NCBI RefSeq assembly: GCF_024298765.1
Contig: NZ_CP101210.1
Reading direction: 5' to 3' (one strand)
Length of the DNA: 64,000 nt
Source of the DNA: Escherichia coli
GTDB taxonomy: Bacteria > Pseudomonadota > Gammaproteobacteria > Enterobacterales > Enterobacteriaceae
The notes beneath the pieces are model-generated. The model searched no databases. It was given only the letters and a program-made list of their open reading frames with translations, and was not told the origin of the DNA. This document shows, piece by piece, positions 34,183-38,250 of this stretch. Position 1 is the first letter of the stretch. Every line of letters starts with the position of its first letter. The translations under genes were made by a program, and so were the position numbers.

Positions 34183-34450
34183 GTAAGAACCGACCGCCGT
34201 ATGTAGCCATTAAGCCAGTATTGGTAACGTAGGTGCCCACCTTTTCAAACTGGTGGACGCCTGTTATGGAGCAAAAACATTATCCGCAGAACCCCGCAGA
34301 TCATTTTCAAATGAGTTAAACTTCAAATGGTTAAACTGGTTTTGCAACCAGGAGCCTCTGTTGCCCGTATTGCCCGGGAACACGATATCAATGATAACCT
34401 CCTGTTCAAATGGCTCAGACTCTGGCAGAACGTAAGGTAAAGGGAGATGA
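34183..34450 (+). mobile_element. IS66-family relic: left terminal repeat plus tnpA (orf1) fragment
   Basis: GTAAGAACCGACCGCCGTATGTAGCCATTAAGCCAGTATTGGTAAC resembles the left end of the IS66-family element at 58800-58860 (reverse strand); translation LVLQPGASVARIAREHDINDNLLFKWLRLWQN matches TnpA. Confidence 0.5.
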
Positions 34451-35290
34451 AAAAGGCAATAGCAGAACTGAGTGACAGTGAAACCATTCTGGCGTACAGG
34501 GTTGGATGGTGAAACTGATAAAAAACCCCCTCTGAAATTCTGTCAGAGGGGCTAGTCAATAAGGGAATAATATTCAACATGAAGATGTCTTCTGGGAATG
34601 TTTATATAGCAAATGCTTTCACTCCGGTAATTAATTTCCGTGATTAACTGCTTTCGATCAATAAAGGAATTGCAAAAGTGTGATCTTGTTCACGACATCG
34701 TGGATAATAATATGCCTGATGTCTGAATCCGGAAACAGTGCTCTGGCGGGTTTCATGTGAAGTTGACGGATAAAAAATCCGCACGACCAGACAGACGTGC
34801 GGTTTACGAAATTCGTAACAAGAGGCTTTTCTACGGATCACGTGGTGCGTGCCACGTGAAATTTTTGTAGCGCAAAATGTGTGATGTGTAAATACAAGGA
34901 AGGAAAAAAGTTAAATCGGTGGAAGTCCATACCTGCCACGTGTACGTCTGCATTCCTCGTTTTGAACAGAATTCTCACCAGACATCGTGAATTTCTCATT
35001 CAATCATCAGAGATATTAACCAGGATTTTTATTGTTTTGTGATATCAGCAGTGCAGGTATACAGACATTAAAGTAATCAGGTTTATTATAACCACCTTTA
35101 CAAAGTTGTATGTGTTTATAATTTAAGGATTTTAATGCCAGTCGTTTTCTGCTGCTTAAATTGAGGTCGCATATTATACACAATAATATTCCTGGCATTA
35201 TTAAATTAATAAAAGAGGATTCTTATCACTGTATTTTTGCTCCGCACTACCGTTCTGGCTGGTGAAATAATAATACAGGAGAATAACAGA

Positions 35291-36550
35291 ATGCTTAAAA
35301 GACGTGATGCTTTTTTAAAGAAAAGCGCGCTGGCAGTGAGTGTGGCCCTGCTGCTCTCATCTCAGGCTTTGGCTCATAAAACAATTACTGATTCAACGGC
35401 GGGTATTATCTGGATTGATAATGGCACTCAGTCACTTGAAAGTGCAAGTGTGATTGACAGAAATGGAAATGCTAACGATGGTGGTAGTGTTACTGGAAAA
35501 AACTTTGCTGTTGGTTCCGATGCAATAATTTGGGATGCGGATAAATCCATGGCAACAGGAAATAAGACAGCTGTTTTTAATGCAGACAACAGTGTCGCTC
35601 TGGGGTATGGCTCTCAGGTGAATGGAGAAAGCAATGTACTTTCTGTAGGGGCCGGTCCTTCAGGATATGGATTTTCAGTTGATGGTGCACCGGAAACCCG
35701 CCGGATTATAAATGTTTCAGATGGTGTTAAGGATAGTGATGCGGCCACAAAAGGACAGATGGACAACGCCATTGCAGGTGCTGTACGGGTGTCGGGGGAT
35801 GCCCTGCGCGGTGAGATAGGAGCTGTCTACCGTGATGCTGTTTCTCATACTGACAGTCAGGTCACAGCAGTACGTGATGAACTGAAGGCAGAGGGAGACA
35901 GTCTGCGCGGTGAGATAGGCGGTGTATACAGAGATGCCCGTGCTCATACTGACAGTCAGGTTACAGCAGTACGTGATGAACTCAGCAGGGATATTATTGC
36001 AGGCACATCGGCAGCGGTGGCGTATACGGATGCATCTTCTCTTGCTCTTCAGGATGAAATAAAAGAAAAAGCGGATGAAACAGTTCAGGTTTCCCGGGCT
36101 TATACAGATAAAAGTGTACGGGATGCCCGTAAAGAAGCGAAAAGCCAGGCAGAACATCTCAGCGATGTGCTTGTGAAGAACAGGGCGCAGACGGATGCAG
36201 CAATAGCCTCAAATACAGCAGCGATAAGGAATAACAGTCATCGTCTGGATTTGACGGAAGCCTGGCAGAAGATGGCGACAGAGAGAATGAATAATATGCA
36301 GGAGCAGATTAAAGAGAACCGGAAGGAGTTAAGGGAGAGTGCAGCCCAGAGCGCGGCACTGGCAGGTCTTTTCCAGCCATACAGTGTTGGAAAATTTAAC
36401 GCGACAGCAGCCGTTGGTGGTTACCGTGATGAGCAGGCCATTGCGGTGGGCGTGGGCTACCGTTTCACAGAGAATGTGGCAGGAAAAGTTGCAGTTGCTG
36501 CAGGTGGGTCATCCGCATCGTGGAATGCTGGTGTGAATTTTGAGTTCTGA
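35291..36550 (+). CDS. Trimeric autotransporter adhesin (YadA-like, type Vc)
   Basis: Signal peptide [28 protein letters not shown], head repeats ([23 protein letters not shown]), coiled-coil stalk, C-terminal YadA anchor ...[47 protein letters not shown]. Confidence 0.8.
35804..35982 (+). repeat. In-frame tandem duplication (2 x 99 bp, 33-aa period) inside the adhesin stalk
   Basis: [27 protein letters not shown] / [27 protein letters not shown]; nucleotide units nearly identical. Confidence 0.7.
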
Positions 36551-36572
36551 CAGGTCAGGATTTAGATATCTG

Positions 36573-36594
36573 TCCCGGGGGGAGTCCCCCGGGA
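36573..36594 (+). terminator. GC-rich hairpin downstream of the adhesin gene (possible terminator; no T-tract)
   Basis: TCCCGGGGGG-AG-TCCCCCGGGA. Confidence 0.3.
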
Positions 36595-36611
36595 TATAAT
36601 GAGGTACAGAG

Positions 36612-37067
36612 ATGCTGGATATAATCCTGGCGACGAGAGATATTTATTTTGAAAAAGCCCTGCGAGAGATATTTGGAACCGTAAGCAGTCGAATCAGATA
36701 TATAGAAGATGCCATATCAGACAGAAGAAGGGTGCAGTCAGGCAGGTCATTCAGATATTATTTTGTATTCTGTGATGATGAGTATACAGATATTGTTCGT
36801 ATTCTTTTTACCGGAGAGGCCTGCTGTATTCTGAATAAGTCGATGCTGAATCTGAGAGCGGCCGGAGGTGTGTTGACGCTGGAAGAGCGCAGAGCGGTAC
36901 TGAACCGGTATTACAGAGGTTTAAGTATTGCGGAGATTACAGAAGAGACGGGGCAGAATGACAAGACGGTATACGGTCATCTTCGTCGTGCACTGCAGCG
37001 GTCTGGATTCCGGAAGGGGCGTTTTATAAAGGGGAGAGAAGCGGCGGGGGATTCAGGTGTTGAATAA
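36612..37067 (+). CDS. Small putative DNA-binding protein with sigma-70 region-4 / LuxR-like HTH
   Basis: Segment LTLEERRAVLNRYYRGLSIAEITEETGQNDKTVYGHLRRALQR resembles region-4-type HTH; family uncertain. Confidence 0.35.
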   Translation: MLDIILATRDIYFEKALREIFGTVSSRIRYIEDAISDRRRVQSGRSFRYYFVFCDDEYTDIVRILFTGEACCILNKSMLNLRAAGGVLTLEERRAVLNRYYRGLSIAEITEETGQNDKTVYGHLRRALQRSGFRKGRFIKGREAAGDSGVE

Positions 37068-37423
37068 TGTATCTTATATTGTGATATCGGTGCTGCTGCT
37101 GTTATTTTTTGTTGTATTTGTGACGAATGGTTAAGAATAAAACATGAGCTGGTGATTATCAGGACAGGTTGCTTGTATATGAAGATAACAAAGGTGGCAT
37201 TTATTTTTGCGCTGTCAGTGTGGAGTGTTGCTGTGATATGTCTTTTATTATTTGTACTGGTTGTTCTGGGATAGCCATAGTGAAATAAAAAGCTGTCTGA
37301 ATTAAATTATTTTGCACACATGTTTTAATTCTGCACTGAATTCAGAATGGGTAATCAGTGACCGTCCTGACGGTCACTTTAAAGAAAAGGCATTTACACA
37401 GAATTACTGACAGGCTCTGGCTG

Positions 37424-37762
37424 TCATTCGGCCGATGAACAGTTGCTTAAGACAGGATTATCATTCCCTTCCACCAGATTGGCTTTTTTACCTTTTGTGT
37501 ACAGTTTATATGAGTATCTTTTATTGATGGCTTCGTAATTGGCTCCGGAGGCCATTTTCATTAGCTGCATAGGTATCATCTCATCCATCTGATTAATCAC
37601 TGCATATGAGTTCCCAGCAGTGGTGTTGATATAGACCACCTCCATTGTCTTATTTCCATTACAGACATAAGCTGTTTTTGAGATTTCTTTTGTGGCAGCG
37701 GAGGATACCATACTGTTGCTAACAAGAATGAGTGCAAGGACGGGAGAAGAGTATTTTTTCAT
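37424..37762 (-). CDS. Secreted small protein, MliC/PliC-like (C-type lysozyme inhibitor family) - tentative
   Basis: 112 aa, signal peptide, conserved Cys pair (YVCNGN...SNCSS) and central SGA..YE motif resembling MliC. Confidence 0.4.
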   Translation of the reverse strand: MKKYSSPVLALILVSNSMVSSAATKEISKTAYVCNGNKTMEVVYINTTAGNSYAVINQMDEMIPMQLMKMASGANYEAINKRYSYKLYTKGKKANLVEGNDNPVLSNCSSAE

Positions 37763-37984
37763 AATAACTCCTTCTGTAGGTTAAAAAAACAGGTGTTTGA
37801 TCAGAATTATATTAATAATTCATTCATCAGAAAAAAAGGTTTTTGTTATAGCAATAATAATGAGCACAATTGCTTGTGAAACTGGTGCCATTTTACGGTT
37901 GCTTAGGAGTGCTGAAACTGTGCCTGTTAGGGCACAGCTGGTGTGGTGGTCTCAGTACGGAACAATTTGAAAACCAGAACATCA

Positions 37985-38250
37985 CTTAGGCTTGTGTCCA
38001 CATTACATGGGGTAGGATCAGTATTCCTCTATCAGGGGTAACTCGACCAGGCTGGCTGAGCTCTCGTTTTACTGCGAGTATCTATGCCCATTCAGCCAGT
38101 GTCAGCGCGAGAGTGTTAAATTCCGAGCGATTATCCATGCGCAGCATGACCGGATAACCATGATTTAGCCCCTGCCGAGCTAATCGGGAACTGCATAGCA
38201 CTCTCAATATGGAATAAGCGATAATTATCGCTTATTCCCAGCAAAATATC
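37985..38250 (-). mobile_element. IS3-family relic: terminal repeat and adjacent rve-domain transposase fragment
   Basis: Reverse complement of 37985-38040 reads TGATCCTACCCCATGTAATGTGGACACAAGCCTAAGTGATGTTCTGGTTTTCAAA, close to the IS3 left end; adjacent translation ...GYPVMLRMDNRSEFNTLALTLAEWA* is an integrase-core fragment. Confidence 0.5.

Follow-up and report, generated by a model that had tools for sequence, protein, structure and literature searches.

An Escherichia coli chromosomal locus that probably joins an Eib-prophage-type adhesin cassette to an unrelated pliC module through insertion-sequence scars

The locus and its genes

This report concerns a 4.4-kb locus (34000-38400) in a stretch of Escherichia coli DNA of 64,000 nucleotides (contig NZ_CP101210.1, assembly GCF_024298765.1), which we call the window. 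The locus is chromosomal, is 100% identical in strain 104 and about 20 other genomes, and carries three genes amid scars of insertion sequences (IS): a YadA-like adhesin, a small helix-turn-helix (HTH) protein and, convergent with them, the lysozyme inhibitor gene pliC (Table 1). An earlier note on this DNA had seen five features here and had taken them for one islet; all five are present and needed only small coordinate corrections. In our reading the locus is probably a mosaic of two unrelated cargo modules joined by IS scars, namely an adhesin-HTH cassette of the kind carried by Eib prophages and the pliC module. As a whole it is an ordinary kind of locus whose parts belong to known kinds, and the ORF-156-like family, to which we assign the HTH protein below, is its sole element without a characterised relative. 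Counts for the locus, the adhesin-HTH pair and pliC refer throughout to a survey of 5,426 complete genomes.

The list of open reading frames (ORFs) starts the adhesin gene at a TTG (35237-36550). We prefer the ATG at 35291, which is also the start chosen by the NCBI Prokaryotic Genome Annotation Pipeline (PGAP; 'YadA-like family protein', WP_039005722.1) and lies behind an AGGAG ribosome-binding site (RBS) 8 nt upstream; the product then has 419 amino acids and begins MLKRRDAF. Its C-terminus matches the YadA anchor both in Pfam (YadA_anchor, PF03895, E 1.9e-16, 60.3 bits against a cut-off of 22.7) and as a structure (2LME, E 1.6e-17). A Sec signal peptide, residues 1-28 followed by HKT, can be read directly off the sequence, and a neck-like motif of 27 residues is visible as well. 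Matches to YadA_head (E 0.008) and YadA_stalk (E 0.002) are weak and lie under the Pfam cut-offs, and the NCBIfam YadA model gives 67.8 bits against a cut-off of 750. A protomer model (predicted local distance difference test, pLDDT, 52) was used for secondary-structure layout alone. It contains short strands that recur every 15 residues at residues 72-119, helices at residues 151-245 and 253-360, and four beta-strands at residues 370-418.

This layout suggests a short YadA-like 'lollipop' in which a beta-roll head and a neck, preceded by a Sec signal peptide, sit on a coiled-coil stalk that ends in an anchor of four strands. By analogy with other members of the family, three such anchors would assemble into a barrel of 12 strands that exports the passenger (type Vc secretion); trimerisation and the coiled-coil nature of the stalk are both predictions. 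The family comparison that had been proposed was carried out against Eib, Saa and YadA. In tblastn the adhesin is about 32% identical to EibC and EibD over 75-79% of its length (36-38% over aligned columns), 57% identical to EibA over residues 302-394, 27% identical to Saa and 26% identical to YadA. Yersinia YadA and Saa, which is encoded on plasmids of Shiga-toxigenic E. coli, share the head-neck-stalk-anchor architecture, yet their identity to the adhesin is low and their genomic context is a different one. Within the anchor, 51-53 of 69 residues (about 75%) are identical to the Eib proteins. The closest relative found outside E. coli is a trimeric autotransporter adhesin (TAA) on an Enterobacter cloacae plasmid, with 45% identity by tblastn and 58 of 69 anchor residues identical.

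The HTH protein (151 residues) was thought in the earlier note to carry a sigma-region-4 or LuxR-like HTH, and it does match Pfam Sigma70_r4_2 above threshold (E 2.2e-7, 30.9 bits against a cut-off of 25.7). An AlphaFold2 model built from a joint alignment (pLDDT 77) places four alternating strand-helix pairs at residues 2-79 and three helices at residues 90-131, that is, a four-stranded alpha/beta receiver-like domain followed by an HTH of the sigma-region-4/LuxR (GerE) type at residues 88-131. The N-terminal domain departs from a true receiver: the aspartate of beta-3 (D55) is present and invariant, but the acidic pair (TRD or TRN follows beta-1) and the beta-5 lysine are missing, there are four strands where NarL/FixJ regulators such as RcsB, NarL and EvgA have five, and the receiver-domain profile models of Pfam and NCBIfam find no match in the protein. 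Those regulators are also longer (about 210 residues), and no partner kinase lies near the HTH gene. On the strength of the model, the protein is probably a miniature NarL/RcsB-like DNA-binding protein that acts independently of phosphorylation, and not a sigma factor.

The third gene encodes a small secreted protein that had been likened to lysozyme inhibitors, and homology places it in the PliC type of the PliC/MliC inhibitors (COG3895). It matches Pfam MliC (PF09864, E 3.9e-12, 46.4 bits against a cut-off of 22), passes the NCBIfam equivalog model for c-type lysozyme inhibitors (PRK13791/NF010363, 155.7 bits against a cut-off of 127) and aligns with crystallised Salmonella PliC (PDB 3OE3; E 7e-40), the two being identical at 64 of 89 aligned residues (72%). 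The Sec signal peptide ends ...SMVSSAATKE with no cysteine at the cleavage site, hence no lipobox, as is characteristic of the PliC subtype. One of its two cysteines is in YVCNGN and the other in LSNCSS, an arrangement shared with SEN1802 and 3OE3, and the protein contains the segment MASGANYEAI.K, which corresponds to peptides from the purified Salmonella inhibitor. The Salmonella protein agrees in all these respects and in length, whereas the E. coli gene is rare and sits in an IS-flanked module of 0.5 kb that also occurs on a plasmid. Given this identity, the periplasmic product of 37424-37762 is predicted to bind and block c-type lysozyme once the outer membrane has been breached. The presence of PliC here is known biology, and its rarity in E. 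coli had already been noted from two genomes (Vanderkelen et al. 2012).

A probable adhesin cassette of the Eib-prophage type

In prophages P-EibA, P-EibC, P-EibD and P-EibE of ECOR-9 and in phage GER2, the cargo region runs ORF-191 (of a tail-fibre family), stem-loop, eib, stem-loop, ORF-156, ORF-60. The window shows the same gene order and orientation, with a hairpin likewise directly 3' of the adhesin stop. Although the whole adhesin is so distant from EibC and EibD, its anchor is close to theirs, and the two genes on either side of it also have counterparts in the window.

On the left, directly past the IS66 relic, positions 34441-34509 encode ...EMKKAIAELSDSETILAYRVGW*, the C-terminus of an ORF-191-type protein. 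With ORF-191C as query, tblastn aligns 15 of 27 residues as identical (33.5 bits, E 1e-5), a score that 0 of 200 shuffles reach (best 20.8). ORF-191 itself matches Pfam DUF4376 and phrog_1141, 'tail fiber protein'.

On the right, the HTH protein is homologous to ORF-156 over its full length, though remotely. This link emerged only through synteny and then profile comparison. In BLASTP the two proteins align over residues 2-133 (E 4e-5, 22% identity); hhalign against an alignment of 20 ORF-156 sequences gives a probability of 95.2% and E 2.6e-8 over 130 columns; phrog_6585, the PHROG profile of ORF-156, matches residues 3-75 (E 3.3e-4); and tblastn finds a third family member at E 1e-4. A direct search with ORF-156 does not retrieve the HTH protein. 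Searches with the HTH protein through 5.8 billion proteins by word index and exhaustively through 1.84 billion representatives returned only near-identical E. coli copies and four marginal matches confined to the HTH. A Salmonella contig carrying the HTH gene was uninformative, as the gene is cut at the contig end and its neighbours are unrelated. The neighbour that might be called 'sigma factor-like' is better described as a relative of Eib-prophage ORF-156, a family with no assigned function.

Between the ORF-191 remnant and the adhesin lies a leader that always travels with the adhesin and occurs in 371 of the surveyed genomes, on chromosomes only. It contains two terminator-like hairpins that face each other, at 34527-34551 (minus strand) and 34838-34859 (plus strand). 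The first, just past the ORF-191 remnant, forms 9 pairs and, on the minus strand, carries a T-run; a minus-strand transcript ending there is not accounted for by any gene or Rfam family, and an Rfam scan of 34000-38400 gave no match above noise. One consensus promoter-like site lies in the leader (35062-35089); consensus sites are fewer than in shuffles, which makes the promoter scan uninformative. After the adhesin, the hairpin CCCGGGGG-GAGT-CCCCCGGG starts 21 nt past the stop and has no T-run, where Eib prophages have a T-run terminator in the analogous position; it is followed by TATAAT and by the GAGG RBS of the HTH gene.

Unlike the Eib cassettes, this one has lost the remaining prophage, has no ORF-60 homologue and is fixed in a chromosomal island between IS scars. 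A hydrophobic ORF of 31 residues (MKITKVAFIFALSVWSVAVICLLLFVLVVLG) at 37179-37274 (plus strand) occupies the position of the membrane-anchored ORF-60 with no sequence similarity to it. An exact-match search did not find its start sequence in four other alleles, the spacer that holds it differs by 28 bp in one lineage, and it is probably not a gene.

Because three collinear and highly diverged components match the Eib prophage cargo, we interpret the first module (34438 to about 37350) as a prophage remnant. It would be a decayed cargo cassette that runs from the end of ORF-191 through a long AT-rich leader, the adhesin and the hairpin to the ORF-156-like small DNA-binding protein. An IS66 event probably removed the left side of the prophage remnant and left about 23 codons of ORF-191.

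A separate pliC module between IS scars

The second module would be pliC (37418-37919). Junctions map to 37349, 37417 and 37919. The first two frame an IS256-family end-like relic (37355-37417) that lies inside the islet and had escaped the earlier note. In other strains a 1.3-kb IS256-family element with a frameshifted transposase occupies 37341-37349 with a 9-bp duplication, as local blastn of the window against L018 (6910-8222) and L008 (about 7348-8660) shows, and in these alleles similarity to the window stops at 37417 and pliC is absent. The pliC module, complete in 144 genomes, is 85.5% identical to a segment of the 231-kb plasmid pLR-46_1 (NZ_AP027538.1, 4007-4812), where the variant adjoins a PerC-family regulator and fragments of IS3, IS66 and IS1, with no adhesin.

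The outer relics had also been described, and both are there. On the left, 34188-34437 is 94-96% identical to an IS66-like tnpA, of which PGAP annotates a frameshifted transposase pseudogene (34253-34428). On the right the family, IS3, was correct; the coordinates (37985-38250) were close, though the debris extends further left and ends near 38178, where homology to the nanE-like flank of other genomes begins. Within it, 37931-38033 resembles the end of IS3-type elements (86-89%) and 38046-38166 the coding sequence of an IS3-family transposase (75-78%). Compared with the avian pathogenic E. coli (APEC) strain IMT5155, the window is missing 743 bp (orfA and partial orfB) of an IS3-family element. 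The adhesin and pliC probably became neighbours through IS-mediated rearrangement and would not have co-evolved; both are ordinary virulence-associated or fitness cargo.

Several observations weigh against the probable mosaic of two modules and the functions that we attach to its parts. The ORF-191 remnant is short (27 aligned residues), the homology of the HTH protein to ORF-156 is remote, and the hairpins behind the adhesin genes of the window and of the Eib prophages share no sequence homology. Some ORF-156 relatives have no adhesin beside them, which makes the linkage frequent and not obligatory. The adhesin protomer model, from which the stalk layout is taken, is of low confidence. Two results on the adhesin described below are also limited: the periodicity of the repeat region is modest (1.7% of shuffles equal it) and partly inflated by the repeat itself, and the contrast of nonsynonymous with synonymous change rests on about one synonymous change per comparison. 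About half of the locus carriers have an adhesin truncated by resistance genes, which implies that the cassette is dispensable.

Stalk length and head sequence vary among strains

The stalk was described in the earlier note as holding two nearly identical 33-residue units that could support length variation, and a survey of copy number across strains was named beforehand as a test. The units share 27 of 33 residues, and Tandem Repeats Finder reports a period of 99 at 35804-35982 (1.8 copies, 87% matches, score 288). Repeat number proved polymorphic: other complete genomes have at this locus adhesin genes of 1161, 1260, 1266, 1359, 1488 and 1548 nt, which hold 1, 2, 2, 3, 4 and 2 units, respectively, and allele lengths of 386, 419/421, 452/454 and 495 residues occur. 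The one-unit allele of 386 residues (strain 14EC020) shares its head with the window, and its single unit begins like unit 1 and ends like unit 2, a hybrid that unequal exchange within the array would be expected to produce. In most alleles adjacent internal units are identical at 97-98 of 99 nt; the first unit of the window has diverged. Both 2-unit and 3-unit forms occur in each of at least five head lineages among the 87 full-length protein clusters, so that change in repeat number has been recurrent, and both forms are common, with clusters on 400 to at least 1000 contigs each. Saa reportedly also varies in the number of a repeated stalk segment.

The hydrophobic periodicity of the repeat region is 3.71 residues, with no power at 3.5, which fits a right-handed coiled coil of hendecad type. 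Unequal recombination or slippage between the 99-bp units could add or remove stalk segments of 33 residues. As 33 is three times 11, one unit would correspond to nine whole hendecad turns, and each step would be expected to change the stalk by about 5 nm and leave the head unrotated. Repeat number could instead be neutral noise of replication or recombination, with no phenotype and no selection on the units. This is quite plausible, and we lean only slightly away from it: the range is just 1-4 units with 2 and 3 dominant, and the in-frame changes do not switch the gene on or off. What speaks against neutrality is that both states recur in several head lineages, each on hundreds of contigs, that the unit length is a whole number of coiled-coil turns, and that Saa reportedly has repeat-number variants too.

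The head varies as well. Over its 103 codons the window differs from IMT5155 by 19.2 nonsynonymous and 0.8 synonymous changes and from AZ159 by 12.2 and 0.8; over the last 136 codons of the adhesin the same comparisons give 0-1 differences. Few as the changes are, the contrast is marked. Other alleles (L008, L017, P0111) carry unrelated, longer heads, with breakpoints at about 35376, just past the signal peptide, and at about 35750-35800, near the neck. The head thus appears to change both by substitutions that alter amino acids and by wholesale replacement, as would be expected of an exposed antigen or receptor. A second micro-repeat, (Gln-Ala)n, lies at the signal-peptide cleavage region (35360-35374, residues 24-28, SQALA) and ranges from n=1 in the window to n=5 in GPEC1210; it is the source of the +6-bp alleles (L004 and L006 compared).

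In about half of the locus carriers, a long-head adhesin is cut after about 175 codons by a chromosomal resistance region, sul2 - aph(3'')-Ib - aph(6)-Id (sul2-strAB) with or without tetA (L017, NZ_CP162160.1, 5854-10853; L033, NZ_CP121149.1, 3001-6086), and the rest of the cassette is gone. PGAP names the stump 'hypothetical protein' or 'Tat pathway signal sequence protein'. Its alleles range over stalks of one to four units, heads that diversify or have been exchanged, and adhesin genes broken by resistance genes, which makes the locus a clean natural series for effects of stalk length and head on adhesion, aggregation and immune or phage recognition.

A possible regulator carried with the adhesin

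The HTH protein had been proposed as a dedicated regulator of the adhesin, which is plausible. Most likely it would act as a phosphorylation-independent transcription factor on its own cassette, a target suggested by the conserved adjacency to adhesin genes. ORF-156 follows eib in every Eib prophage examined, and a further pairing occurs on a plasmid-like contig (L030-L032, 1-3918). That contig carries a 1,439-residue TAA, then a BamE/OmpA-domain gene, a second, short TAA of Eib-like type with 59% identity to EibC, and finally an ORF-156 homologue.

The HTH gene might, however, have nothing to do with the adhesin and either regulate another target, as a leftover of a prophage or of the island, or no longer function at all. 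Such a hitchhiker deserves real weight, and we incline to doubt it. ORF-156 relatives adjoin non-adhesin genes at several loci: after a PapB-family fimbrial regulator gene, just upstream of kpsF-type capsule genes of the kps region, adjoining a type VI secretion gene, and beside hpaBC (L025 327-1259; L027/L028 4001-4516; L022-L024 4001-4495). No adhesin remnants were found beside these relatives. The HTH protein has no homologues outside E. coli, so that its conservation cannot be judged. The Eib regulators ibrA and ibrB are reportedly unlinked genes. Some strains carry a natural knock-down allele of the putative regulator: in L003 (NZ_CP125887.1, 3552-4033) and strain XDL, 35 bp are deleted from the interval that separates the adhesin stop from the HTH gene; the HTH start is lost with them, and the annotated product has 107 residues. 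Against the hitchhiker, the adjacency has outlasted divergence to 22% identity in the HTH protein and about 35% in the adhesin, and the pairing recurs on prophages, a plasmid-like contig and this island. The adhesin-HTH pair is found in about 183 genomes, and the gene is intact in 180 with 0-2 differences per 456 nt. It has a good RBS and begins 61 nt past the adhesin stop, with no T-run terminator between them.

A broader proposal would be that ORF-156-like proteins form an uncharacterised family of miniature, phosphorylation-independent receiver-plus-LuxR transcription factors that accompany horizontally acquired genes for surface structures in E. coli and act as on-board regulators of their cassettes. 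Their companions would be Eib and Eib-like adhesins, the PapB-type fimbrial switch and the kps capsule region, and one task might be to counter the silencing of an AT-rich leader. We advance this tentatively and think it unlikely to hold in so general a form. If it did, on-board regulation would explain the induction of Eib-type adhesins, fill a gap in the understanding of Eib expression and give a handle on a gene that has stood unannotated beside every eib gene since 2000.

The adhesin is predicted not to be an Eib

Some NCBI records name the adhesin an 'immunoglobulin-binding protein', which would make it a true Eib, that is, a non-immune immunoglobulin-binding protein. The best characterised matches in the phage collection are indeed EibC and EibD, EibA is close near the C-terminus, and the cassette layout is Eib-like. 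Yet an alignment with EibA, EibC, EibD and EibE finds no counterpart of the Eib N-terminal segment of about 150 residues or of the NDGLVAL end of the saddle, and the motif RTDRID[YA]A, present in all four, is absent; counted without gaps from the anchor, the register puts unrelated residues in its place. The low-confidence model has no beta-rich insertion in the stalk, and EibD structures are not significant matches (2XZR, E 0.15). The Asp of RTDRID[YA]A is required for Fc binding in EibG, and IgG Fc is not bound by the related Cla adhesins, in which the conserved residues are missing (preprint 10.64898/2025.12.25.695649). With the defining Eib features missing, the adhesin is predicted not to be an Eib; immunoglobulin binding is very improbable and the database name is probably wrong.

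Closer in kind are the EibG-like 'Cla' and 'Yal' lineages of that preprint, which are likewise short Eib-related trimeric adhesins with no Eib N-terminal domain. The adhesin shares the profile of 'Yal' (no saddle, function unknown), a likeness by description only. It is not claA or claB: their primer-encoded starts, MKNNDRKY and MKINRHGI, differ from MLKRRDAF. The residue numbers that the preprint gives for the Fc pair of EibE, D378-Y388, disagree with AF151676, in which the adjacent D-Y of RTDRIDYA are at 370-371; a slip of numbering or typing probably explains this, and our comparison used the motif in place of those numbers.

Movement of the locus as a discrete unit is not supported

The proposal that adhesin, regulator and inhibitor form one discrete, IS-bounded islet that was inserted or moved as a unit can draw on the relics at both outer edges and on the retention of the entire 4.4-kb arrangement at 99-100% identity in about 60 genomes, but we regard it as largely refuted: the bounding relics come from different families, a third relic and a module junction lie inside, a joined-flank search found an empty site with the flanks abutting in 0 of 685 genomes, the left flank (transketolase 3' end and IS66 relic) accompanies the adhesin in every configuration seen while pliC is missing from most and occurs on a plasmid without it, and a prophage remnant of ORF-191 forms the left edge of the cassette. 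The parts are also unequally distributed (locus in about 371 genomes, adhesin-HTH pair in about 183, pliC in 144), as would not be expected of a composite transposon. Together, the missing empty site, the unequal distribution, the separate pliC module and the IS junctions leave movement as a single unit unsupported.

Feature coordinates and the surrounding island

Table 1. Features of the adhesin-pliC locus, in window positions
Feature	Position	Strand	Basis or remark
IS66-family left-end relic	34183-34437	+	5' part of tnpA, frameshifted, ends abruptly at 34437
ORF-191-type 3' remnant, last ~23 codons and stop	34441-34512	+	tblastn
Adhesin leader, 853 bp, GC 36-43%	34438-35290	+	GC profile, genome survey
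Trimeric autotransporter adhesin (predicted), 419 aa	35291-36550	+	YadA_anchor, 2LME, PGAP
Adhesin signal peptide, aa 1-28	35291-35374	+	
Adhesin head, aa 29-131	35375-35683	+	
Adhesin neck, aa 132-159	35684-35767	+	
Adhesin coiled-coil stalk (predicted), aa 160-350	35768-36340	+	layout from low-confidence model
Adhesin beta-barrel anchor, aa 351-419	36341-36547	+	
Two in-frame 99-bp/33-aa stalk units, aa 169-201 and 202-234	35795-35992	+	
GC-rich hairpin	36572-36595	+	folding, -22 to -24 kcal/mol, z -2.3
HTH protein, 151 aa	36612-37067	+	Pfam, profile comparison, model
Intact target site for IS256-family element of other strains	37341-37349		local blastn
IS256-family end-like relic	37355-37417		81-88% identity to sequence annotated as IS256/IS1414 transposase
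pliC module	37418-37919	-	pliC coding sequence 37424-37762, 112 aa
IS3-family debris	37920-38178		element end 37931-38033; transposase fragment 38046-38166

The locus is flanked by an operon of phosphotransferase-system and split-transketolase genes that ends at 34064 and by a nanE-like gene on the minus strand (38267-38956). By the annotation of strain 104, the host island is a large mosaic with hlyE, fecIRABCDE, pgtPCBA, many IS fragments, a classical autotransporter and an integrase at its right end. It is not the tkt1 pathogenicity island of APEC O1, which sits between metE and ysgA, has a full-length transketolase and is a different locus. Many of the carriers listed appear to come from poultry, an impression from the rows and not a statistic.

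Two copies of a backbone module lie in the island (53-1099 and 27143-28213), each a YagK/YfjJ-domain or hypothetical gene followed by a ProQ/FinO-family gene, which is frameshifted in the second copy. The same module adjoins an IS1-truncated transketolase in other configurations of the locus (left parts of L008, L017 and L018), and its recurrence suggests repeated integrative-element backbones. Between an IS66 element and the ProQ-like pseudogene, at 20808-27031, the window also holds a complete pgtP-pgtCBA phosphoglycerate transport system, of a kind best known from Salmonella.

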